This document shows, in pieces, positions 8,868-22,894 of a stretch of 64,000 bases of DNA. Each line of letters begins with the position of its first letter. Position 1 is the stretch's first letter. The notes below the pieces were generated by a model. That model did not search any database, was not told the origin of the DNA, and worked only from the letters and a program-made list of their open reading frames with translations. Source of the stretch: Anaeromyxobacteraceae bacterium (GTDB lineage: Bacteria; Myxococcota; Myxococcia; Myxococcales; Anaeromyxobacteraceae). The stretch spans positions 1,088,001 to 1,152,000 of the forward strand of contig JASGHJ010000001.1 of NCBI GenBank assembly GCA_047602405.1, given 5' to 3'. The position numbers and the translations under genes are program-made.

Positions 8868-8940
8868 GCCTGGATAGCTCAGCTGGTAGAGCAGGGGATT
8901 GAAAATCCCCGTGTCCCTGGTTCGATTCCGGGTCCAGGCA
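8868..8940 (+). tRNA. tRNA-Phe (GAA)
   Basis: GCCTGGA/TCCAGGC acceptor stem, D arm TAGCTCAGCTGGTAGAGC, anticodon arm GGGGA-TTGAAAA-TCCCC, T loop TTCGATT; CCA not encoded directly after the discriminator (ACTCCA). Confidence 0.97.
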
Positions 8941-8962
8941 CTCCATCTCGTCCGACATCGAA

Positions 8963-9004
8963 GGGGCCCCGGGACTGCAAAGTCCTCGGGGCCTCAGTGT
9001 TTTC
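8963..9004 (+). terminator. Rho-independent terminator after tRNA-Phe
   Basis: GGGGCCCCGGGACT-GCAA-AGTCCTCGGGGCCTC hairpin followed by GTGTTTT. Confidence 0.7.
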
Positions 9005-9022
9005 GGTGCGGAGGGGACCTCA

Positions 9023-9385
9023 TTGAAGAAGCACAGGTTCGGCATCGCGGTGGCGCTCGGGCTCGGGACCCTGGCGGTCGTCCAACTCTTCGTGCAACAG
9101 CGGCGGTACACCATCGCTGTGCACGTGATGTCCGAGCTGGTCGAGGAGATCCGGAACGGACGGGCCAAGGACGTTCGGCACCTCGAGGACGGCGACGTGC
9201 GGGAGCGGAATTGGATGCAGTCGCCGTTCACGGTCCACTGCGATCTCGTGCCTCCGTTCTCGTGGACTCGCTTCGCGTGTGTCGCCCGGTTCGACGACGG
9301 CGGTTCGGCTGCCGCCGACGTGGACACGAAGACGGGCCGGATCCTTGGCGCGCGCGTCCTTCCGCCCAGGCGCGCGGGGGACTGA
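9023..9385 (+). CDS. Hypothetical membrane-anchored protein
   Basis: GGAGGGG RBS before TTG start; single N-terminal TM segment. Confidence 0.5.
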   Translation: MKKHRFGIAVALGLGTLAVVQLFVQQRRYTIAVHVMSELVEEIRNGRAKDVRHLEDGDVRERNWMQSPFTVHCDLVPPFSWTRFACVARFDDGGSAAADVDTKTGRILGARVLPPRRAGD

Positions 9386-9432
9386 CGCGGCCAAGATGCT
9401 GAAATCAACAGTAACCATCCTCAACGAACCAG

Positions 9433-9473
9433 GTTGCGTTTGGGTCGTCTGGAGTTGCGTCTGGGTCGTTTGG
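9433..9473 (+). promoter_or_regulatory. Tandem direct repeat, putative operator of the TA operon
   Basis: GTTGCGTTTGGGTCGTCTGG / GTTGCGTCTGGGTCGTTTGG (18/20 identical, 21-bp period) just upstream of the Xis-HTH gene. Confidence 0.6.
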
Positions 9474-9499
9474 TGCTAGGCTCAACACCGGAGGTTCCA

Positions 9500-9997
9500 A
9501 TGGCCAACGCCCTGCCCTCGCTCGAAGACCAGATCCGCCGGATGACGCCCGTCGCCGCGCCGCCCGAGCAGCGCGCCCAGGTCGTCGAGCTCTCGAAGGC
9601 GCTCGACGTGATGGCTCAGGCTCGGACGCGCAGCGCACCCGCGTGCAAGCTCGTCGGTCCGGGCGGCAAGGCCATCCCTTTGCCCGAGTCGGTGTTCTAC
9701 GTGCTCGAGCGCGTCGCCGAGGTCCTGGCGCGCGGCGACTCCATCACGGTCGTGCCGGTCGGGCGCGAGGTGACGACCCAGCAGGCGGCCGACCTCCTCA
9801 ACGTCTCGCGGCAGTACCTCGTCAGGCTTCTCGAGGGCGAACGCATCCCCTACCGGAAGACCGGGAAGCACAGGCGCCTGAAGATCGAGGACGTCCTGGC
9901 ATTCAGGGCGAGGCGAGACCAGGAGCGCCGGGAAGGCCTGCGCCAGCTCTCGCGGACGACGCAGGAGTTCGGTGGATACGACTCCGAGTTGAAGTAG
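9500..9997 (+). CDS. Excisionase-family (HTH_17) DNA-binding protein, putative antitoxin
   Basis: GGAGG RBS; EVTTQQAADLLNVSRQYLVRLLEGERIPYRKTGKHRRLKIEDVLAF; adjacent to PIN gene. Confidence 0.9.
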   Translation: MANALPSLEDQIRRMTPVAAPPEQRAQVVELSKALDVMAQARTRSAPACKLVGPGGKAIPLPESVFYVLERVAEVLARGDSITVVPVGREVTTQQAADLLNVSRQYLVRLLEGERIPYRKTGKHRRLKIEDVLAFRARRDQERREGLRQLSRTTQEFGGYDSELK

Positions 9998-10015
9998 TCT
10001 CGGGCGCGAGGCCTC

Positions 10016-10582
10016 ATGGTCCCCGCGCCCTTCGTCGTCATCGTCGACGCGAACCTGCTCTACCCATTCACCCTGCGGGACACGATCCTGCGCGCGGCCG
10101 CGCGCGGCTTCTTCCAGCTCCGCTGGAGCCGCGAGATCCTCGACGAGATGGAGCGCAACCTCGTCGAGCACGCGGTCATGCCGGCGGACAGGGCCGCAAG
10201 GCTGCGGGCGATCATGGAGGCGAACTTCCCGGAGGCCGACGTGTCCGGGTACGAGCTGCTGACCCCCGTCATGCCGAACCACGAGAAGGACCGTCACGTG
10301 GCTGCGGCGGCCGTGAAGGGCGGCGCCCAGGTGATCGCCACGGCCAACCTGCGGCACTTCGAGCTGCTGCCGGACGGGGTCGAGGCTCAAGCGCCGGATG
10401 CGTTCCTGTGCAACCTCTTCGACCTCGACCCGAACGGCTTCGTCGAGCTGCTGGCCGAGCAGGCCGAGGACCTGAAGAATCCGCCGATGACGTTCGAGCA
10501 GCTGCTGGGGCGGCTCGCTCGTGACGTGCCCGAGCTCGTGGCCGGCGTTCTCAGGAGGATCGGACGAGGCGGTGTTCGCTAG
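10016..10582 (+). CDS. PIN-domain protein (VapC-like putative ribonuclease toxin)
   Basis: VIVDANLLYP, WSREILDE, EKDRHVAAAA, IATANLRHF acidic PIN motifs. Confidence 0.9.
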   Translation: MVPAPFVVIVDANLLYPFTLRDTILRAAARGFFQLRWSREILDEMERNLVEHAVMPADRAARLRAIMEANFPEADVSGYELLTPVMPNHEKDRHVAAAAVKGGAQVIATANLRHFELLPDGVEAQAPDAFLCNLFDLDPNGFVELLAEQAEDLKNPPMTFEQLLGRLARDVPELVAGVLRRIGRGGVR

Positions 10583-11547: not shown

Positions 11548-14082
11548 TCACCCCCCGCGCCACCACGTCCACTTCACCATGAACGAGTCGACCTTCGGCC
11601 CCCGGAAGAGCTCCGGCGTGCCAATCCCGTCCGGCGGCGCGCGGTCGCCCGGCGGCGGGAGCTCGCTCTGCGAGCGCGTGTACACGACGTAGATCGTCGA
11701 GCCGAGCCGGTACTCCCAGCGCAGGACCGCGTTCACGTTCACGACCGCGTCGTGCGCGCTCGGGTCCTTGTCGTAGGTGATCGGGACGAGATCGGAGTGG
11801 GAGAGGTCGCGCCGGCCCACGATCGAGGCGCCGTAGAAGGTCGAGCCCCAGCGGATCGCCTGGCTGAAGAACTGCACGTAGAGCTGGGCGGTGAGGCGCG
11901 GCGTGAAGACGAGCTGTTGACGGAGCGTGAGCGAGAGGAACTCCGGATCCTGCACGCCGAAGACGGCGGTGCCGTCGCCGAGCGTCTCGATCCAGCGCGG
12001 GCCCTGGGGCTTCAGCCCGTAGGCGCCCTCGAGCCGCGTCTCGAGCCTCGGGTGCGGCCGCCAGCTCGCCGCGAGGTCCCAGCCCCAGCCGGTCTTCGCC
12101 GTGAACGGGCCCGCTCCGATGGTGCGGATCAGGAACACGTCCCCGTTCGCCTGCAGCGCCTGGTGCGGGTCGGACGCGAGCACGAGGGCGACCCAGCCGT
12201 CGCTCGTGCGCTCGAAGGGCACGCCGGCCCGGACAATCTCCCTCGCGTCGTACTGGAGGACCTCCAGCGCGACGCGGACGCCGATCTTCTGGTACCCGGG
12301 GAGCTGCAGCGACGAGTAGACGTTCGTGTTGACGCCCCGGGGGAGCCGGCCGTCCGCGGTCCAGTTGAGGTCGAGGTTGTAGTCGACCTGGAACGCGTGG
12401 AACGGGCCGATGCCGTTCGGACGGACGTAGTGGAGGTTCAGGTCCGCCCACTGGTAGTCGGCGAACGGCTGGAAGCCGATGCGGTTGAGGTCGAGCTTCG
12501 GCGGCTGGTAGACGTACTGAACGTCGAAGCGCCACGGCTCGCCCCGGAGCTTCCCCCAGCGCATGTGGCCGCCGAGGCCGAGGTCGCCCGAGTGCAGCAC
12601 GGTGCCGTCGCGCAGCGTGCGGCCCGCGGAGCCCCCGCCGACCGCCTGGGACAGCGAGAGCTGGCCGAAGCCGCCCCACTCGCCCGCGTCGTTCAGGTCG
12701 AGGGCGAGCGCGTTCGCGCCGGTGACGCCGCAGCCGGCGCCCTCGTAGCAGCGCTGCTCGAGCGGCGTCGCCGCCGCGACCGTGACCCCGGCGCTGAGAT
12801 CGCCCGCGAGCTTCTTCCGCGCGACGGCCGCGAAGTAGTTCGTGGTGACGGGGCGCTCCGCCGGGAACGCATCTTCCGGCCCGAAGCGGAACGGCTGGCG
12901 CGCGTGGAGGCGCCAGCGCCGGTCGGGATCATCCTCGGGCGAGTCGCTCGCCGCCCCCATGACGACGCTGTCGAGCACCCCCACCTCGAGCCCGGGCCCG
13001 GCGTTCCCGGTGAGCTTCGCCGCCGCGAGGATCGGCGCGTCGAGGCCCACGCGGCGCGAGTAGAAGAGCTGCTGCTGGGTCCCGTACTCGAAGCCGACGG
13101 GCTGGAAGATGTCGAGCCCCTCGAGGAAGAACGGCCGCTTCTCCGGGAAGAACTGCTCGAAGGTGGAGAGGTTCTGGATCACCTCGTCGGTCTCGACCTG
13201 CCCGAAGTCCGGGTTCACGGCGCCGGTGAGCGTGAGCCGGCGCGTGAGCGGGAGCTTGAGGTCGAGGCCGACGTCGAGGATGGGGTCCACGAGCCGCGGG
13301 TTCGGCCGGGCGGGATCCGAGTACTGCGGCCGCAGGATCCCGCGCGCCGCCACGTACGGCAACAGCTCGAGCGGGCGCGGCGGATCCACGCCGGCGAGCC
13401 CCTCGAGGCGGCCGAGCCGCGAGACCACGAGCTCGCCGGGCTTGCGCGGGTTGGCCTCCTGGGGGACGAGCGTCGAGCCGAACACCTGGTGCGTCCTCGG
13501 CACGTGCCGGCGCACGACGAAACCCCACGCCTGCCCCGCGTCCTCGCCGAGGCGGAGGGAGCGGAACGGGATGGCGAGCTCGGCGCCCCAGCCCTGCTCG
13601 CCGACGTGGACGGCGGCGTCCCAGACCGCGTCCCAGCTGTCGGTGGTGTTCACGTCGCCGAAGAGGAGCGCGTCGCGCAGCACGCCCGCCGCGTTCACGA
13701 CGAAGACGTAGGCGGTGCGGCCGCCGGCGCCCGGGTCGATCGCCACCTCGACGCGGTCGGAGGTGGTGTCGGTGTCCCGCCGGGCGAGCTGACGGATGAT
13801 CCGGTCCGGCGCCGGGTCCGAGCAGGTGACCGCGACGTAGAGCGTGGTGTCGTCGAAGACGACCCGGAGCTCGGTCGGCAGGCTCGCGGGCGCTCCCGCC
13901 TGCGGGAAGCTCTCGACGAACCGGGAGAAGACCGGCGCCTCGGCCCAGTCGGGTTCATCGAGCCGCCCGTCGAGGTGGATCTCGCCGGTGGCCCGGCGCG
14001 CGACGACGGGGTCGGGCTCGGCGGCAGAAGCGGCGCCGGAGAGCAAGCAGGCGAGAGCCGCGAGACTCCAGCGCTTCAGCAC
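11548..14082 (-). CDS. CBM9-like / DUF5916 outer-membrane protein
   Basis: Signal peptide, IHLDGRLDEPDW N-terminal CBM9-like domain, AVNPDFGQVETD and FFPEKRPFFLEG motifs, aromatic C-terminus. Confidence 0.85.
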   Translation of the reverse strand: MLKRWSLAALACLLSGAASAAEPDPVVARRATGEIHLDGRLDEPDWAEAPVFSRFVESFPQAGAPASLPTELRVVFDDTTLYVAVTCSDPAPDRIIRQLARRDTDTTSDRVEVAIDPGAGGRTAYVFVVNAAGVLRDALLFGDVNTTDSWDAVWDAAVHVGEQGWGAELAIPFRSLRLGEDAGQAWGFVVRRHVPRTHQVFGSTLVPQEANPRKPGELVVSRLGRLEGLAGVDPPRPLELLPYVAARGILRPQYSDPARPNPRLVDPILDVGLDLKLPLTRRLTLTGAVNPDFGQVETDEVIQNLSTFEQFFPEKRPFFLEGLDIFQPVGFEYGTQQQLFYSRRVGLDAPILAAAKLTGNAGPGLEVGVLDSVVMGAASDSPEDDPDRRWRLHARQPFRFGPEDAFPAERPVTTNYFAAVARKKLAGDLSAGVTVAAATPLEQRCYEGAGCGVTGANALALDLNDAGEWGGFGQLSLSQAVGGGSAGRTLRDGTVLHSGDLGLGGHMRWGKLRGEPWRFDVQYVYQPPKLDLNRIGFQPFADYQWADLNLHYVRPNGIGPFHAFQVDYNLDLNWTADGRLPRGVNTNVYSSLQLPGYQKIGVRVALEVLQYDAREIVRAGVPFERTSDGWVALVLASDPHQALQANGDVFLIRTIGAGPFTAKTGWGWDLAASWRPHPRLETRLEGAYGLKPQGPRWIETLGDGTAVFGVQDPEFLSLTLRQQLVFTPRLTAQLYVQFFSQAIRWGSTFYGASIVGRRDLSHSDLVPITYDKDPSAHDAVVNVNAVLRWEYRLGSTIYVVYTRSQSELPPPGDRAPPDGIGTPELFRGPKVDSFMVKWTWWRGG

Positions 14083-14172
14083 ATGACCTCGGCAGGTTGA
14101 ATCACGAGTGAAAGAGGTCCTACGCGCCCAGGCGTGACGCGACATCTTGGGCGCAGTCCCGCCCGCGTTCGC

Positions 14173-15017
14173 TCAGTCGACCCAGCGCACGCCGTCCACC
14201 CAGGCCAGCCCGTCGCGCTCCACCGCCTCAGCGTTCCGCACGACCTTGCACCAGGCCGAAAGCCGCACCGTGTCGTGGTCCACGTGCCGGACGCGCCCGC
14301 GGACGAGCACGAAGGCCGGCGCGGCGGAGCGCCCGGGCACGTCGGCCTCCGGCGGCACGGCCGGCGTCGCGGGCACCTCCACGCGCTCGTCCGCGACGTG
14401 CGGGTTGCGGCCCGGCCCGACCGGGACGCCCCGCTGCACGACGGTGCGCTTGGCGCGGAGCGCCTCCTCCAGCGCGGCGAGCTCGGCGGAGGTCGCCGGC
14501 GGGAAGAACCACTCGCCCTGCCGCGGCACCGCGCCCGCGCGGGCGACCTCCGGTGCCCTCAAGGCCGCGTGGGCCGCGCGGTGGTGACCGCCCGCGGCAG
14601 CCGGCAGATGAACAGCTGGCGCTCGTCCCGGCCGCAGAGGAAGTGGCGCTTGCGGGCCGGCGCGCGGCGCTCGACCCAGACCCGCGAGCGGTCCTCCCGC
14701 ACGATGGCGGCGCCTCGGAGGTCGAGGGTCCCGTTCTTCCAGAACATCTGGTGGAACGAGCGGGGCGGCTCGTGGACGAGGAGGACGAGCTGGTGGAGCG
14801 CGGGGTCCACGCCCTCCACCTCCACGCGGTTGTTTGCGGCGCCCGGCCAGATGCGGAAGTACTCGTCCCTCCCCTTGCCGACGATGGTCAGCTGGAAGAT
14901 GTCGGCGGAGTCCACCGTCCCGGGGAACTGCGCGGCGGTCGCGCGGCCCCGGTCGATCACCTCGGCGCGGAGGTTCGCGGCCGCGAACCGGCGCACCAGC
15001 AACTCGGAGTTGCCCAT
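14173..15017 (-). pseudogene. Uncharacterised RQGEWFF-motif protein split by a 1-nt frameshift near 14580 (pseudogene or sequence error)
   Basis: GGAGAG RBS then MGNSELL...HFLCGRDERQLFICRLPRAVTT in one frame; continues as RAAHAALR...RQGEWFF...VRGRVRHVDHDTV...WVD-stop in another frame. Confidence 0.7.
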
Positions 15018-15230
15018 GTCGCTCTCCATGCAGGCCGGCAAAGGCCTGCGGTCGGTTGTCTTCGTGCTGTTCGGACGACCAACGATGGGGCGACCACGGG
15101 AACCTCCTTTCCTGCGACGTGACTGAGGGTGTACGCCTCCGGCGCGCGCGCGTCAACGGGTGGGGCGCCGCCGAGGGCGTGTCCGGGGTGGGTGGAGAAT
15201 GAAGCGGCGGCGCCGGTGCGAAGCGGGTGT

Positions 15231-15264
15231 TATCCCACCGTATCCTATTCGAGACGGCCGTATA
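15231..15264 (+). promoter_or_regulatory. Putative RtcR upstream activation sequence for rsr
   Basis: TATC-N6-TATC-N6-GAGA-N6-TATA at 10-bp period; CCGTATCCT shared with 20499-20507 upstream of rtcB. Confidence 0.5.
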
Positions 15265-15328
15265 AGGCGTCAGACCCGCCCGTCCAGGGCTCCCCAGCCT
15301 ATTCGCCCACTTGCAGGCGCCCCGACGC

Positions 15329-15346
15329 TGGCACGCCCGCTGCTCT
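15329..15346 (+). promoter_or_regulatory. sigma54 (-24/-12) promoter of rsr-Y RNA operon
   Basis: TGGCACGCCCGCTGCTCT (GG-N10-GC), identical to the rtcB promoter core. Confidence 0.85.
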
Positions 15347-15420
15347 ACCGGTCCAAGTCGCACGCACCCCGCCGCCCGGCCGGAGTCGAGGCCGGGCGGC
15401 GGTGGGGCAGGGAGATCGCC

Positions 15421-16971
15421 GTGGCCAACAGGAACCTGTTCCGCTCCATCTTCGGAAAGCTCATCCCTTCCGCCGACGCGGTGAACGAGGCCGGCGGCCG
15501 CGCCTACGCGCTCGCCCCGAAGGCCGCGCTCGCGCAGTGCGCCGCGACGGGCTGCCTGAACGGCGTCTACTACGCGACGGCCGAGACCCAGCTCGACCAG
15601 GTCCTCACCCTGGCGGCCGGCGTGGAGCCGGCGTTCGTCGCGCGCACGGCGGTCTACTCGCGCGAGCGCGCCTTCATGAAGGACATGCCGGCGCTCCTCC
15701 TCGCGCACCTCAGCGTCCGCGAGCCGGACCTGTTCGAGCGGGTGTTCCCGCGGGTCGTGACCGATGGGCGCATGCTCCGCACCTTCGTGCAGATCCTCCG
15801 CTCGGGCGCCGTCGGCCGGAAGTCGCTCGGCTCGCGCCCGAAGCGGCTCGTGCGGGAGTGGCTGGCCTCGCGCGACGGGGACCAGGTGTTCCGCGCCTCG
15901 GTGGGCCAGTCGCCGTCCATCGCGGACATCGTGAAGATGGTCCACCCGCGCCCCGAGGGCGACGAGCGCCGCGCCCTCTACGGCTACCTGCTCGGCCGCG
16001 CGCACGACGCCGCGGCCCTGCCGCCGACGGTCCGCGCGTACGAGGCCTTCAAGGCGGGCGCCTCGACGATCGTGCCGGACGTCCCGCACCTCATGCTCAC
16101 GGCGCTGCCGCTAGGGCACCGGGAGTGGAGGGAGATCGCCCTGCACGCGAGCTGGCAGACGGTCCGCATGAACCTCGCCACCTTCGCTCGGCACGGCGTC
16201 TTCGAGGAGCCGGGCCTCGCCGAGGTGATCGCGGCGAAGCTGCGCGATCGCGAGGCGATCCGTCGCGCGCGGGTCTTCCCGTACCAGCTGCTTGCCGCCC
16301 GGATGATGGCGGACGGCCTGCCGCTGTGCGTGAAGGATGCCCTCGCGGAGGCGCTCGAGCATGCGACCGAGAACGTGCCGGCGGTCCAGGGCAAGATCTA
16401 CGTTTGCCCGGACACCTCCGGGTCGATGGGCTCGCCCGTGACCGGTCACCGCACCGGCGCGACCTCGAGCGTGCGGTGCATCGACGTGGCGGCGCTCGTG
16501 ACGGCGGCGCTCCTCCGGAAGAACCCGGAGGCCGAGGTGCTGCCGTTCGCCGAGGGCGTGAAGCGGGCGCGGCTCGACCCGCGGGACACCATCGCCACGA
16601 ACGCCGCCGCGCTGGCGGGGCTCGGGGGCGGTGGGACGAACTGCAGCGCGCCGCTCGCGGAACTGAACCGCCGCGGCGCGAGGGGTGACCTCGTGGTGTA
16701 CGTGTCGGACAACCAGTCGTGGATCGACGTCCACGCAGGGAGGGGCACCGCGACGATGGAGGAGTGGAACCGCTTCCAGCGGCGCAACCCGCACGCGAAG
16801 CTCGTGAACATCGACATCCAGCCGTACGTGACCAGCCAGACCGCGCCGCGCGCCGACATCCTCAACGTCGGCGGCTTCTCGGACCAGGTGTTCGAGGTCG
16901 TCTCGGAGTTCCAGCGCGGAGGCCACGACGGCGCGTACTGGATCCGGACGATCGAGGAGGTGACCGTCTAG
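15421..16971 (+). CDS. rsr: Ro60-related RNA-binding protein (TROVE + vWA domains)
   Basis: GGAG RBS + GTG; MANRNLF..NEAGGRAY, MKDMPALLLAHL, GRKSLGSRPKRLV, RMNLATFARHGVF, FPYQL, MIDAS DTSGSM, GGGGTNCS, SDNQSW, VGGFSDQVF. Confidence 0.95.
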   Translation: MANRNLFRSIFGKLIPSADAVNEAGGRAYALAPKAALAQCAATGCLNGVYYATAETQLDQVLTLAAGVEPAFVARTAVYSRERAFMKDMPALLLAHLSVREPDLFERVFPRVVTDGRMLRTFVQILRSGAVGRKSLGSRPKRLVREWLASRDGDQVFRASVGQSPSIADIVKMVHPRPEGDERRALYGYLLGRAHDAAALPPTVRAYEAFKAGASTIVPDVPHLMLTALPLGHREWREIALHASWQTVRMNLATFARHGVFEEPGLAEVIAAKLRDREAIRRARVFPYQLLAARMMADGLPLCVKDALAEALEHATENVPAVQGKIYVCPDTSGSMGSPVTGHRTGATSSVRCIDVAALVTAALLRKNPEAEVLPFAEGVKRARLDPRDTIATNAAALAGLGGGGTNCSAPLAELNRRGARGDLVVYVSDNQSWIDVHAGRGTATMEEWNRFQRRNPHAKLVNIDIQPYVTSQTAPRADILNVGGFSDQVFEVVSEFQRGGHDGAYWIRTIEEVTV

Positions 16972-16975
16972 GAGT

Positions 16976-17056
16976 GGGAGGGAGCCGAATGCTGGCCGGG
17001 AGTACATCGCTTGGGACGATATTCGCTCTCTGTGACGTCCTCGTCGGCTCCCTCCC
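16976..17056 (+). ncRNA. Y RNA-like element 1 (short, no tRNA-like domain)
   Basis: 13-bp terminal stem GGGAGGGAGCCGA/TCGGCTCCCTCCC; GCCGAATGC Ro-binding-type motif; GGGAGTACA and CGTCC motifs shared with elements 2 and 3. Confidence 0.7.
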
Positions 17057-17065
17057 TGCAGTACG

Positions 17066-17220
17066 TCGTTCGATGGACGAAGCGCCGGATGCCGCCGGGA
17101 CTACACTCCAACGTGCCAGGTCGCGGGTTCGAGTCCCGCTCCGGGGTGTCCCCTCGGGTAGCTCAGCTGGTAGAGCAGGACGTCTCGGCAACACTCGCCG
17201 GCGCTTCCTCGATCGAACGA
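17066..17220 (+). ncRNA. YrlA-like Y RNA with circularly permuted tRNA-mimic domain
   Basis: Terminal stem with GCCGGATGC/CTCGCCGGC; T arm GCGGG-TTCGAGT-CCCGC (17123-17139) precedes a loop-closed 7-bp acceptor-like stem (17140-17158) and D arm TAGCTCAGCTGGTAGAGCA (17159-17177). Confidence 0.9.
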
Positions 17221-17223
17221 TCA

Positions 17224-17376
17224 TCGACGGCCGCACGGACGGGCGGCGAATGCTGCGGGGACTACATGGTCCTTCGCCGGGGTTCGAGCCCCCGGGCAGG
17301 CGCAGCAAGCCTGCGGGCGGGGTCACACCCGCTACGTCTCCGCGCCCTCGTCGCCGCCCGTCCGTGCGGCCGTCGG
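17224..17376 (+). ncRNA. Y RNA-like element 3 with T arm and non-canonical D arm
   Basis: Long stem CGACGGCCGCACGGACGGGCGGCGA/TCGCCGCCCGTCCGTGCGGCCGTCG; GGCGAATGC, GGGGACTACA; T arm CCGGGG-TTCGAGC-CCCCGG; GCAGGC/GCCTGC and GCGGG/CCCGC hairpins. Confidence 0.85.
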
Positions 17377-17380
17377 CTCA

Positions 17381-18876
17381 GGGACCGTGAAGGAATGGCC
17401 CGGCGGTAGCGGAGGCGGCTCCCGGGCTGGCCGTCGCGGGCGGTGGGCGGGGTGAGAGGCCGACGACGGCCCTCACGCCTGTGGGCGGGATTCGTCGAGG
17501 ACGATCGATCGGCTTCGCCCGATGTCAGGTCGCCGCGCTCGCGGCGACGACCCGCAGGAGGTTGAAGGTCAGGGCGGCGAGCAGCACAACCGTCTTCACT
17601 TTCACGATGCCGCGGACCTTGAGGCGATCGAGCCCTCGGTGTCCTCGAAGATCGGCGTTGGTCCGTTCGGCGAGCACGCCACGCTGGACGTAGATGCGCT
17701 TCGCATCCTCGGTTCCCATCCGGACGCGCCAGGCGGCTACGTTCGGTGTGTCGCCGCGCTTGGGGGCGTACCGGTCTACGGTGTCGTTCTTCGGCTTGGG
17801 GGTCGGCGCGTAGATCGTGGCGCCGCGGTGCGAGACGACCTCGATGTTCTCGAGGCTCGTGAAGCCGCCATCCACCAGGTACTCGTCCGGCACCTTGCCT
17901 GTGCGCCGCTCGATCTCATCGAGCATCGGCACGACGTGGGGTTGGTCCGTCCCGTGGTTCGTCACGTCGACGCCCACGATGATCCCGCTCTCGTCGGTTG
18001 CGAGCTGGACGTTGTATGCGGGCCGGAAGCCACCGTCCGCCATCTTCATCACCCTGCTCTCGGCGTCCGTCGTGCTGACGCGGATCTCCTTGCGCCGCTT
18101 GGCCTCGGAAGGCTTCCTCGCGTCGCGCTCCGCACGATCCCGCTCGATGATCGGCAGTTCCTTCAAGGCCGCCTCGATCGCGGCCTGGCGAGCCGTCGCC
18201 GCGCGCTCCTTCGCGGCCGAGACCCGCTTCGACGACGCGGACGGGTCCGACTCGATCTCTCGGCGCAGCTTACGAACCTGTTGCTCCGCCTCGTCGCGGC
18301 AGCGCTCCAGGGACTGCCGCCGCCGAAAACTCGCTGCACCAGCGCTCGCTCGGACCTTCATCCCGTCCTGCGCGACACGCCGCAACTTCACCACGCCTTC
18401 CTTCATGAGGACGGCGAGCACCTGGGTCAAAAGGCCATCGAGCTTCTTCCCGTGGTCCACGCGGAAGTCCGCGAGCGTGTGGTAGTTCACCGGGACTCCG
18501 CCGCAGATCCACCGATACGGAGCATCCCGGACGCAGAGCTGCTCCAGCAGCCGCGCGCTACCGACACCCTCCGAGTTCGCGAACAGCCACAAGGCGAGCA
18601 TCACGGCGGGATCCGTGGCGGGGCGCCCAGCGATGCTGCCTCGCGCGCGGATCTCGTCGTAGAACGCCGACAGGTCGAGGCGCTCGACCATGGCCCAGAT
18701 CCCACGCACCGGGTGGTCGTCGGGCACCATCGCCTCGAGGTCCGTCGGCTGCAACGCCAGCTGATTCCGGACCGGCCTCAGCACTCGCGGCGCGTCGTCG
18801 TCGCTCACGCCACCAGAAGATCACGGCCAGGGGGCCCCAGTCCATGGGACACCCCGGCCGATTCCTTCACGCTCTC
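17381..18876 (-). mobile_element. IS1182-family insertion sequence (1496 bp)
   Basis: Imperfect terminal IRs GGGACCGTGAAGGAAT (17381-17396) and reverse complement GAGAGCGTGAAGGAAT (18861-18876); TCA on both flanks; single transposase. Confidence 0.88.
17525..18808 (-). CDS. IS1182-family DDE transposase
   Basis: VPDDHPVR, GRPATDPAVML, NYHTLADFR (DUF772-like N-terminus), AQDGMKVRASA, STTDAESRVMK, PAYNVQ, LVDGGF. Confidence 0.92.
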   Translation of the reverse strand: MSDDDAPRVLRPVRNQLALQPTDLEAMVPDDHPVRGIWAMVERLDLSAFYDEIRARGSIAGRPATDPAVMLALWLFANSEGVGSARLLEQLCVRDAPYRWICGGVPVNYHTLADFRVDHGKKLDGLLTQVLAVLMKEGVVKLRRVAQDGMKVRASAGAASFRRRQSLERCRDEAEQQVRKLRREIESDPSASSKRVSAAKERAATARQAAIEAALKELPIIERDRAERDARKPSEAKRRKEIRVSTTDAESRVMKMADGGFRPAYNVQLATDESGIIVGVDVTNHGTDQPHVVPMLDEIERRTGKVPDEYLVDGGFTSLENIEVVSHRGATIYAPTPKPKNDTVDRYAPKRGDTPNVAAWRVRMGTEDAKRIYVQRGVLAERTNADLRGHRGLDRLKVRGIVKVKTVVLLAALTFNLLRVVAASAAT

Positions 18877-20481
<1,605 letters not shown>

Positions 20482-20498
20482 ATCGCCTGGTCTAGCAC

Positions 20499-20515
20499 CC
20501 GTATCCTGTCAGATA
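20499..20515. promoter_or_regulatory. Putative RtcR binding site in rtcR-rtcB intergenic region
   Basis: CCGTATCCTGTCAGATA containing inverted TATC-N6-GATA, about 80 bp upstream of the sigma54 core. Confidence 0.55.
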
Positions 20516-20580
20516 AAGTCGGTTGGCGCCGAGGGACCGCTTGTCCCGGGAACCGCGCGTAGAATCAGGGAGAACGCACC

Positions 20581-20598
20581 TGGCACGCCCGCTGCTCT
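20581..20598 (+). promoter_or_regulatory. sigma54 (-24/-12) promoter of rtcBA
   Basis: TGGCACGCCCGCTGCTCT, identical to 15329-15346; divergent from rtcR. Confidence 0.88.
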
Positions 20599-20608
20599 CT
20601 AGGCTGGC

Positions 20609-21859
20609 ATGGAGACCGCCATCACCGAGACGCGCGAGCGCACCCACGAGGTCCAGGACGTGCCGGGGGGCGTGCCGGTCCGCTCCTGGACCCTGGGCGT
20701 CCAGTTCGAGGAGAAGGCGCGCGAGCAGGTCCTGCGCGTCGCCGCGATGCCGTTCGTGCACCCCTGGGTGGCCGTGATGCCCGACGTGCACGCAGGGATC
20801 GGCGCCACGGTCGGCTCGGTCATCCCGACGGCGGGCGCGATCATCCCGGCTGCGGTCGGGGTCGACATCGGCTGCGGGATGATGGCGGTGCGGACCACGC
20901 TCACCGCTGCCGATCTCCCCGCCGACCTGAGGCCGCTCCGCGAGACGATCGAGCGCGCGGTCCCCCACGGTCGGACGAACCACGGCGCTCGCGGCGACAA
21001 GGGCGCGTGGCACAACCCGCCCGAGCGCGTGACCGCGGCCTGGGCACGCCTCGAGCCGGGGTACCAGACGCTCGTCGCGCGGGTGCGCAAGCTCGATCGC
21101 GGCGCGACGCTCGAGCACCTGGGGACGCTCGGGACGGGGAACCACTTCATCGAGGTGAACCTCGACGAGGCGGCGCAGGTCTGGTTCATGCTGCATTCCG
21201 GCTCGCGGGGGGTCGGGAACCGCATCGGCACGGACTACATCGAGCTCGCGAAGCGGGAGGCGAAGCGCTGGTACCTCGACCTTCCCGATCCCGACCTCGC
21301 GTACTTTCCGGAAGGCACGGAGCTCTTCGAGGACTACCTGCGCGCGGTGACCTGGGCGCAGGAGTACGCGGCGACGAACCGCGAGCTCATGATGGAGGCG
21401 GTCGTGGAGACGCTGAAGCGCTGCGGGCGTCTCCCGCCGTTCGAGCTCGAGGGAGCGCGCGTGAACTGCCACCACAACTACGTGGCGCGCGAGAGGCACT
21501 ACGGGAAGAGCGTCCTCGTGACCCGCAAGGGCGCCGTGCGGGCCGGCCCCGGTGACCTCGGGATCATCCCGGGCTCGATGGGGGCGCGGTCGTACATCAC
21601 CCGCGGGCTCGGGAACCCGGAGGCGTTCATGAGCTCGAGCCACGGAGCGGGCCGGGCGATGTCTCGCACCGCGGCGAAGAAGGCATTCACCCTCGAGGAC
21701 CACGCCCGCGCCACCGCGGCCGTGGAGTGCCGCAAGGACGCCGAGGTGATCGACGAGACGCCGGCGGCGTACAAGCCCATCGACGCCGTGATGCACGCGC
21801 AGCGCGACCTCGTCGAGGTCGTCCACACGCTGCGCCAGGTGATCTGCGTGAAGGGATAG
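20609..21859 (+). CDS. rtcB: RNA ligase RtcB
   Basis: MPDVHAGIGATVG, VGVDIGCG, LGTLGTGNHFIE, HSGSRG, CHHNY, RKGA, IPGSMG, HGAGR, DETPAAYK. Confidence 0.98.
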   Translation: METAITETRERTHEVQDVPGGVPVRSWTLGVQFEEKAREQVLRVAAMPFVHPWVAVMPDVHAGIGATVGSVIPTAGAIIPAAVGVDIGCGMMAVRTTLTAADLPADLRPLRETIERAVPHGRTNHGARGDKGAWHNPPERVTAAWARLEPGYQTLVARVRKLDRGATLEHLGTLGTGNHFIEVNLDEAAQVWFMLHSGSRGVGNRIGTDYIELAKREAKRWYLDLPDPDLAYFPEGTELFEDYLRAVTWAQEYAATNRELMMEAVVETLKRCGRLPPFELEGARVNCHHNYVARERHYGKSVLVTRKGAVRAGPGDLGIIPGSMGARSYITRGLGNPEAFMSSSHGAGRAMSRTAAKKAFTLEDHARATAAVECRKDAEVIDETPAAYKPIDAVMHAQRDLVEVVHTLRQVICVKG

Positions 21860-21862
21860 CCG

Positions 21863-22894
21863 ATGGCGACGCTCGAGATCGACGGGGCGCAGGGCGAGGG
21901 CGGGGGCCAGCTCCTCCGATCCTCGCTCGCCCTCTCCCTCGTCACCGGGACACCATTCCGCATCGTGAACATCCGCGCCGGGCGGCGCCGGCCGGGGTTG
22001 ATGCGCCAGCACCTGACGGCGGTCCTCGCGGCGGCCGAGGTGGGCCAGGCGCAGGTGTCCGGCGCGGACATCGGATCTCGCGAGCTCACCTTCGAGCCCG
22101 GCGCGGTCCGCCCTGGCGAGTACGCCTTCTCCGTGGGCACCGCCGGCAGCGCGACGCTCGTCCTCCAGACCGTGCTTCCCGCGCTCGCGCTCGCGAAGGG
22201 CCGCTCGAGCGTCACCGTGGAGGGTGGCACCCACAACCCGATGGCGCCGCCGTTCGACTTCCTCGCCCGCGCCTTCCTGCCCCTCGTGTCGCGGATGGGC
22301 CCGCGGTTCGAGGCGGTCCTCGACCAGCCGGGCTTCTATCCGGCCGGGGGCGGCCGCCTGCGGGTGGCCATCGAGCCGGCGGCGGGCTTCGGCCGGCTCG
22401 AGCTGCGCGAGCGCGGGGAGGTGAAGGCCCGACGGGCGACAGCGGTCGTCGTGATTCTGTCGCGCACGATCGCGGAGCGCGAGCTCGCGGCCGTGCGCCA
22501 GCGGCTCGGCTGGGAGGAGTCCGCGCTCCGGATCGAGTCGGTCGGGAGGGCGGCAGGGCCGGGAAACGTCGTGACGGTCGAGGTCGAGAGCGAGCACGTG
22601 ACCGAGGTCTTCACCGCCTTCGGCGAGCGCGGCGTGTCGGCGGAGCGCGTGGGGTCCACGGTCGCCGACGAGGCGGCGGCGTACCTCGCGGCGGGCGTGC
22701 CGGTGGGGCCACACCTAGCCGACCAGCTCCTCCTCCCCATGGCGCTCGGCGAGGGCGGCGTGTTCCGCACGCAGCGCCTCACCGGCCACACGCGCACGCA
22801 CATCGCGCTGCTCCGGGCGTTCCTCGGCGCCGAGATCCAGGTGCGCGAGCTGGGGGACGCCGTGCGGGAGCTCGAGGTGCCCCCACGGAGATGA
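21863..22894 (+). CDS. rtcA: RNA 3'-terminal phosphate cyclase RtcA
   Basis: IDGAQGEGGGQLLR, IRAGRRRPGLMRQH, GTAGSATLVLQ, GGTHNP, GFYPAGGG, HLADQL, TGH. Confidence 0.97.
   Translation: MATLEIDGAQGEGGGQLLRSSLALSLVTGTPFRIVNIRAGRRRPGLMRQHLTAVLAAAEVGQAQVSGADIGSRELTFEPGAVRPGEYAFSVGTAGSATLVLQTVLPALALAKGRSSVTVEGGTHNPMAPPFDFLARAFLPLVSRMGPRFEAVLDQPGFYPAGGGRLRVAIEPAAGFGRLELRERGEVKARRATAVVVILSRTIAERELAAVRQRLGWEESALRIESVGRAAGPGNVVTVEVESEHVTEVFTAFGERGVSAERVGSTVADEAAAYLAAGVPVGPHLADQLLLPMALGEGGVFRTQRLTGHTRTHIALLRAFLGAEIQVRELGDAVRELEVPPRR

Follow-up and report, generated by a model that had tools for sequence, protein, structure and literature searches.

A predicted array of three Y RNA genes with one conserved handle and differing distal domains follows rsr in an Anaeromyxobacteraceae bacterium

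What are the three long stems that follow the Ro60 gene, rsr, in the genome of an Anaeromyxobacteraceae bacterium, and do they equip one Rsr protein with different distal domains? We analysed a stretch of 64,000 nucleotides of this genome (hereafter the window), for which a first-pass annotation had proposed three tandem Y RNAs with a constant Ro-binding module and interchangeable effector domains. The rsr gene (15421..16971, + strand) encodes a Ro60/TROVE-vWA protein of 516 amino acids, with the Pfam vWA_Ro60 and TROVE domains both above cut-off. It most likely starts at the GTG at 15421, since homologues align from residue 1; a longer reading frame starting at 15160 found no support. The protein matches Deinococcus radiodurans Rsr (2nvo) over residues 20–500 (E 9.9e-20) and scores 72 bits against the 900-bit cut-off of the NCBIfam Rsr equivalog, and by these comparisons it belongs to a clade that is divergent relative to the studied Rsr proteins.

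The three elements sit 5–405 nt past the rsr stop codon, on the same strand as rsr, within a cluster of RNA-repair genes: rtcR, the sigma-54 activator (18877..20481, - strand; NCBIfam RtcR 820 bits, cut-off 650; also Pfam RtcR), rtcB, the RNA ligase (20609..21859, + strand; Pfam RtcB, E 1.1e-127), and rtcA, the RNA 3'-phosphate cyclase (21863..22894, + strand; Pfam RTC, and NCBIfam above cut-off). A sigma-54 (-24/-12) promoter is predicted, by consensus match only, for the rsr-Y RNA unit at 15329..15343 (+), and an identical one for rtcBA at 20581..20595 (+). In the whole genome, the 19-mer containing the first of these (15328–15346) has just two occurrences, one preceding rsr and one preceding rtcB. 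With rtcR, rtcB, rtcA, rsr and the predicted sigma-54 promoters, the cluster has the make-up of an RtcR-regulated RNA repair operon. Of 48 loci examined, 15 have a strict sigma-54 pattern before rsr; all 15 belong to the same-order/same-phylum set, and the count includes the window's own locus and takes one locus twice. A sigma-70 promoter scan found none, and no U-tailed intrinsic terminator was found in 15100–17600. Similar palindromic boxes of the form TATC...GAT/GAC lie at 15232–15270 and 20495–20520, about 80–90 nt before both sigma-54 sites; such boxes also occur 5' of rsr in relatives and are candidate RtcR binding sites.

Between element 3 and the rtcR stop codon lies an IS1182 element (17382..18875, - strand; transposase 17525–18808), which scores 366 bits with NCBIfam (cut-off 270). 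It is bordered on both sides by a CTCAG repeat and has a second copy in the genome, 99.8% identical. The insertion does not belong to the Y RNA/RNA-repair system, and because of its second copy and the flanking CTCAG repeats we conclude that element 3 formerly abutted the rtcR stop codon, as it does in relatives. The distribution of rsr itself is patchy, at 9 of 151 genomes of the order and 14 of 401 of the phylum (both counts include this genome).

The stems proposed at 16976–17056, 17066–17220 and 17224–17376 were borne out by folding, in that the 409 nt spanning them fold into three separate domains with a handle pair probability of 0.86–1.0. Uninterrupted pairing closes 16976–17056 (13 bp), 17079–17207 (10 bp) and 17224–17376 (26 bp), and the fold of element 2 adds pairing out to about 17066–17220. 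The units are spaced 3–9 nt apart, each with its own closing stem. Fold z-scores were -2.7 for element 1, -1.5 to -1.8 for element 2 and -6.7 for element 3. A GNCGA-type 5' motif stands in the end-to-end stem of each element (positions 16984, 17084 and 17245); in element 2 a G replaces the first A, with a compensating C opposite. In the 6.16-Mb genome the 5' handle pattern has 11 matches; the window accounts for three of them, and these all fall in the array. The shared scaffold described by the first-pass annotation is present in all three elements, but in element 1 its GGGAG pairs with CTCTC at 17026–17030 and not with CGTCC.

Alignment of the regions downstream of relatives' rsr genes, an analysis that the first-pass annotation had called for, showed that the shared handle covaries. 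In the upper handle stem, 92.7% of cells were paired, with 55 two-sided changes against 17 in shuffled alignments, and only 30–48% were paired after sliding. For D-arm-less units, the upper handle stem and T stem together were 97.4% paired, with 62 two-sided changes against 17. These tests were confined to the upper handle stem, which was not used in picking units, and the T stem; covariation in the lower handle stem is partly circular, as units were picked by that pairing, and kinship among units inflates both the two-sided-change counts and the locus counts. The core of the original proposal, that the three Y RNA genes have a conserved and covarying handle in common and differ in their distal domains, is supported. 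The first-pass annotation did not note the conserved GG of the element-3 class, the sigma-54/RtcR setting or the IS1182 beside element 3. The expectation that gene callers would miss the array also held, but the array was not called a pseudo-tRNA: ARAGORN reported no tRNA in it, its only call in the window being the tRNA-Phe at 8868, and the Rfam tRNA model had no match in 12000–22000.

Element 2 (17066..17220, + strand; core 17079–17207) is the most readily assigned of the three. The suggested Rfam covariance-model search returned it, and it alone, as a YrlA above cut-off (RF02553, 73.7 bits, cut-off 69, E 6.9e-16), with all 114 model positions matched; it is the only one of eight RF02553 matches in the genome to exceed the cut-off. 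The description of element 2 as a full permuted tRNA mimic proved accurate, with a T arm (17123–17139), a closed acceptor-like stem and a D arm (17161–17176) in that order. From the sequence and the Rfam alignment, the nucleotides of the tRNA tertiary contacts U8/A14, G15/C48, G18G19 and T54-A58 are readable, and 9 of 47 predicted pairs show two-sided change among four family orthologues. The minimum-energy fold of the element differs from the cloverleaf.

Counted back from the T arm, positions 32–38 of element 2 read CTCCAAC, an anticodon-loop-like 7-mer at 17106–17112. Among 55 YrlA-type or canonical-order units, the linker is long enough for such a loop in 25 and too short in 30. The pattern Y32-U33-N3-R37 occurs in the anticodon register in 15 of the 25 long-linker units, where 7.5% would be expected; in shifted registers it occurs in 0–3 units, except for 8 of 34 at shift -1. 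The anticodon-like triplet varies among element 2 orthologues and across relatives' YrlA-type units. Possibly the 7-mer is left over from an origin in tRNA, or else it serves as a decoy.

Element 1 (16976..17056, + strand) has the handle plus a variable loop, a YrlB-like architecture. Its score with Rfam YrlB (RF02565) was 24.7 bits against a cut-off of 97, so that it is not a family member by score. We built a model of the short class, R1, from 42 units of other genomes (44 de-duplicated short units minus the window and its same-genus orthologue), and with R1 element 1 scored 45.2 bits (E 5.6e-10), the next unrelated match reaching 17.3 bits. The genome search with R1, in which 150 of 1655 candidates were scored, gave two matches at E<=0.1, both in the array. 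A short distal hairpin had been described for this element; a handle with a small distal part was found, but in relatives that part is a variable loop and not a conserved hairpin. Element 1 belongs to a short class broader than Rfam YrlB.

Element 3 (17224..17376, + strand) is closed by an outer stem of 26 bp and carries a GG (17268–17269), a T arm (17277–17295), a closed acceptor-like stem-loop (17296–17314) and an extra hairpin (17317–17332). It scored 22.1 bits with Rfam YrlA, below cut-off, and the place of the D arm holds the extra hairpin, which lacks the D-loop GG. Element 3 is classed as a Y RNA other than YrlA. A model of units with a T arm and no D arm, R2, was built from 30 of 38 D-less units, all from other genomes; not used were the window's own unit, its family orthologue and six rows that were long or atypical. 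R2 scored element 3 at 48.4 bits (E 6.6e-13), element 2 at 52.4 bits and element 1 at 31.7 bits, with the next match at 15.4, so that it bears out element 3 as a Y RNA without telling it apart from YrlA.

The T arm, acceptor-like stem and third hairpin claimed for element 3 are all present, but the hairpin does not hold as a general substitute for the D arm. Among 92 family genomes we found four units orthologous to element 3: two keep the stem with a different loop, one lacks the third hairpin and has a hairpin before the T arm instead, and one has a decayed YrlA D arm. No covariation was found in the hairpin, the stem of which is invariant in three sequences, and we regard it as a local feature of this small group. 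It was rejected as an anticodon arm, its loop being 6 nt here and closed to 5 nt in the orthologues. We also rejected mimicry of the 16S decoding strand, to which the hairpin presumably bears some resemblance: the loop differs in both orthologues, and the motif occurs in only two other units, both short-type.

The same-genus locus has elements 1 and 2 only. The two genomes that share the third hairpin (G438 and G439, 94% and 91% complete) have no rsr match, and the other two orthologue loci carry a broken rsr, so the element-3 orthologues may be relics. In G439 and G438 (loci L115 and L117) they adjoin rtcR fragments, and in L115 a sigma-54 site just before the remnant suggests deletion of rsr together with elements 1 and 2. 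A third unit in locus L114 (1426–1581, - strand) is hybrid-like, with an element-2 handle and D arm and an element-3 linker, and could reflect recombination between tandem units; rsr is broken in this locus, which could also contain sequencing errors.

The GG immediately after the handle is typical of the D-less class, standing there in 29 of 32 de-duplicated D-less units (four with D-arm pieces having been dropped first), against 6 of 56 short and 14 of 44 YrlA-type units. A U follows it in 18 of the 29. This GG perhaps stands in for the D-loop GG, taking the place of G18/G19 on the T loop. The literature covered, which did not include the likeliest reviews, yielded no account of D-less units as a class marked by a conserved GG.

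Is such an array unusual? We gathered rsr loci by protein search and, in addition, with the 5' segment of element 3 as a pattern. As PF05731 performs weakly on the present Rsr clade, the Rsr protein itself served as a query. Of the metagenome matches to the element-3 pattern, 48 of 53 have an rsr homologue in the locus. The protein search gave 71 loci, the window excluded, in which 400 nt or more of sequence follow the rsr stop codon. Of these, 64 have a handle after rsr, 60 at least two and 39 at least three, and a handle match falls inside rsr itself in only one. A rough classifier found a short unit in 50 of these loci (first in 44), a D-less unit in 36, a YrlA-type unit in 35 and all three in 18, so that short units are missing from 21, D-less units from 35 and YrlA-type units from 36. 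This regex classifier errs, for example in labelling the YrlA of L059 as D-less, and its errors led to two counts, 21 and 24, of loci with at least three handles for the same 44 loci. The D-less units come from several phyla. Applied to 27 loci fetched after model building, at least one of them close kin of a training locus, R2 found 82 units, in all 27 loci. Seven apparently 'permuted' units in metagenome loci were adjacent YrlA pairs that had been misparsed, and were left uncounted. In viral contigs, three rsr relatives showed no handle array by eye within 900 nt after their stop codons. The idea of a specially expanded set did not survive this comparison, given that 39 of 71 related loci already hold three or more handles; judged by these loci, the graded trio is an ordinary arrangement in the Rsr clade. 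In three Bryobacterales loci (L010, L011 and L012), large tRNA gene arrays lie immediately upstream of rsr.

Relatives also graft the same handle onto a tRNA body in two topologies besides that of YrlA. The first is a full tRNA mimic opened at the D loop, with 25 matches representing 18 distinct units in 20 loci (for example, L062:869–971, L066:667–768, L143:994–1099 and L145:1249–1343). These units run from handle to 3' D-arm half, anticodon-arm hairpin and T arm, and then through the closed acceptor and the 5' D-arm half back to the handle. In 18 of 18 units, though these represent two lineages, the split D stem is concordant, and in about half of them the 3' D-arm half begins with GG right after the handle. 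From this order of parts, the D-less units may be reduced forms of the D-loop-opened topology.

The second consists of canonical-order Y RNAs with open acceptor ends, found after rsr in L038, L039, L041, L046, L053 and L057 (for example, L057:3158–3277 and L039:3311–3427), in which a short-loop-closed handle replaces the anticodon arm. Rfam scores six canonical-order units as tRNA with a long insert, and ARAGORN calls none. Where canonical-order copies stand in tandem, a YrlA can also be traced from one unit into the next, in line with the prediction of the dimeric-tRNA origin model; the single copies in L041, L046 and L057 do not allow this. Neither D-loop-opened nor canonical-order Y RNAs were found described in the literature covered, again without the likeliest reviews. 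It is possible, though we hold it only tentatively, that this Rsr clade joins a constant handle to a tRNA body in three or more topologies (in YrlA the handle sits at the anticodon arm and the acceptor is closed; in a second form it is itself a closed anticodon arm and the acceptor ends are open; in a third it opens the D loop), that element 3 is a reduced D-loop-opened type whose GG docks on the T loop and so forms a minimal tRNA elbow, and that the array is a selected set of tRNA-elbow displays that are not equivalent and have partners or targets of their own.

The locus as a whole is Rsr/Y RNA/RtcRBA, a known system, and what is gained here is a refinement and no new pathway. It resembles the rsr-yrlBA-rtcBA locus of Salmonella Typhimurium (Chen 2014, PMC4201824; Hughes 2020, PMC7790460) in that first a short hairpin Y RNA and then YrlA come after rsr, and in the presence of rtcB, rtcA, rtcR and sigma-54 sites in the cluster. 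It differs in its third, D-arm-less Y RNA, its divergent Rsr clade and its IS1182 insertion, and in that rsr-Y and rtcBA form two units, on either side of rtcR, whose promoters are identical. Element 2 has the permuted arm order of YrlA RF02553 (structure in Wang et al., 10.1101/312249), with the T arm first, then the closed acceptor stem and then the D arm, but it carries its anticodon-loop-like 7-mer at the place where a V region is described. Element 3, unlike that family, has the handle, T arm and closed acceptor stem without the D arm. Element 1 is like YrlB RF02565, M. smegmatis YrlB and D. radiodurans Yrn2 in consisting of a handle and a small loop, and it stands first after rsr. M. smegmatis YrlB has a possible T arm and no described D arm, like element 3. 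The D. radiodurans locus likewise has several small RNAs beside rsr (Yrn1, Yrn2 and RNAs a, b and d), some of them T-arm-only, but its Y RNAs represent another RNA lineage with another handle and lie upstream of rsr. Chen 2014 (PMC4201824) already has loci with several Y RNAs, forms with a T arm only and the idea of different partners.

How might such an array work? We favour, with some confidence and by analogy to other species, a reading in which Rsr forms alternative particles, three in all, with the products of the three Y RNA genes once RtcR senses broken tRNA. On binding tRNA halves, an activation shown for Salmonella only (PMC7790460), RtcR would turn on both sigma-54 promoters. A single precursor would then be cut into three RNAs at the outer stems, and each RNA would bind one Rsr ring through its handle, as work in Salmonella, Deinococcus and Mycobacterium suggests (PMC4201824). 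Element 1, lacking a distal domain, would act mainly as a gate and stabiliser of Rsr. Element 2, with a full tRNA elbow, could tether Rsr to PNPase or another tRNA-recognising factor; D. radiodurans RYPER is a precedent for Rsr-PNPase tethering, which by analogy could occur here, PMC12135203 reports Y RNA-dependent PNPase complexes of a phage Ro60, 10.1101/312249 describes the tRNA fold of YrlA and a putative elbow-binding factor, and this genome has a PNPase gene, as well as one for TruB, which bears on pseudouridine 55 of YrlA. Element 3 would present a reduced elbow, a T arm on a closed acceptor stem, with its GG predicted to replace D-loop G18/G19. Together the three RNAs would help to clear or hand on damaged RNA while RtcA and RtcB repair ends. 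That the partners of the three RNAs really differ is a more doubtful step. Against the favoured reading, this Rsr is divergent from the studied ones, two element-3 orthologues lie in loci with no rsr match, the GG is also present in 14 of 44 YrlA-type units, and no single Y RNA type is indispensable, because element 3 is missing from the same-genus locus and each type is missing from some of the 71 loci.

An unlikely alternative is that only the handle matters, the array being a set of redundant Rsr gates or stabilisers from tandem duplication and element 3 a YrlA copy with a decayed D arm. Array make-up does vary freely, from none to seven units, with some arrays of short units only, and the absence of element 3 from the same-genus locus fits, as do the three states found after the acceptor stem in family orthologues (extra hairpin, nothing, decayed D arm) and the persistence of orthologues in loci with no detectable rsr. 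Against it, D-less units recur in 36 of 71 loci and in several phyla, and decay would preserve neither the covarying T stem nor the class-typical GG. A less probable view takes elements 2 and 3 to be mainly Rsr-carried tRNA decoys, directed at anticodon nucleases and other toxins that attack tRNA, which they would bind or inhibit. The anticodon-register match in 15 of 25 long-linker units and the CTCCAAC of element 2 favour it, the operon answers anticodon cleavage, and competitive inhibition is suggested in PMC7790460. The same source gives Salmonella YrlA as not cleaved, however, and the linker is too short for the loop in 30 of 55 units, the triplet differs among element 2 orthologues, and the 7-mer lies in an open internal loop, its first letters in element 2 perhaps belonging to the handle motif; element 3 has no anticodon-like loop at all.

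We consider it improbable, to a still greater degree, that the array is one unprocessed RNA scaffolding several Rsr rings, or that the stem of element 3 serves chiefly as the transcript end between the convergent rsr and rtcR genes. The spacing of 3–9 nt, the lack of a U-tailed terminator in 15100–17600 and the position of element 3, which ended at the rtcR stop codon before IS1182 arrived, as in relatives, are compatible with these ideas. Every unit is nevertheless closed by a separate stem, polycistronic precursors are cut to release the Y RNAs of Mycobacterium and Deinococcus (PMC4201824), and a transcript end would not need handle, GG and T loop. Finally, the elements are 63–76% G+C and the IS begins 5 nt past element 3, so one might take the stems for inverted repeats, arisen by chance or repeat-like, in GC-rich DNA, or for part of the IS; but the Rfam match lies above cut-off, the second IS copy has nothing in common with this locus to the left of 17374, the stems covary and they are strictly linked to rsr, and we regard this reading as refuted.

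With a single promoter and a single Rsr, the locus provides a natural series in three steps, from no distal domain through a T arm lacking the D arm to the full mimic, in which partner specificity is directly testable. The series bears on what YrlA binds through its tRNA-like domain and on why rsr loci keep more than one Y RNA. Mixed Y RNA arrays are common in relatives and little catalogued; R1 and R2 show that Rfam misses most array units, including the widespread D-arm-less class. What is added here is this uncatalogued D-less class with its conserved GG, together with the topology series in relatives, the locus itself being not unusual.

Public data provided an independent relative: a 2.6-kb sludge contig covers 16651–17381 with 65 other letters and 22 gaps and spans all three elements. 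Seven public sequencing runs contain only 4–6% of the locus words, and none matches the locus closely. Of 170 metatranscriptome contigs across the region, from one dataset, 123 are below 90% identity, too distant to report on this locus. To the left of rsr, a gene oriented divergently from it (14173–15041, - strand) without a Pfam or NCBIfam match is split into two overlapping frames here and is largely one frame in the same-genus locus L047, and so is probably one frameshifted gene. Farther out, a tRNA-Phe gene followed by a pair of HTH_17 and PIN_3 genes (8868–10582) stands on the left side of the rsr-bearing island.
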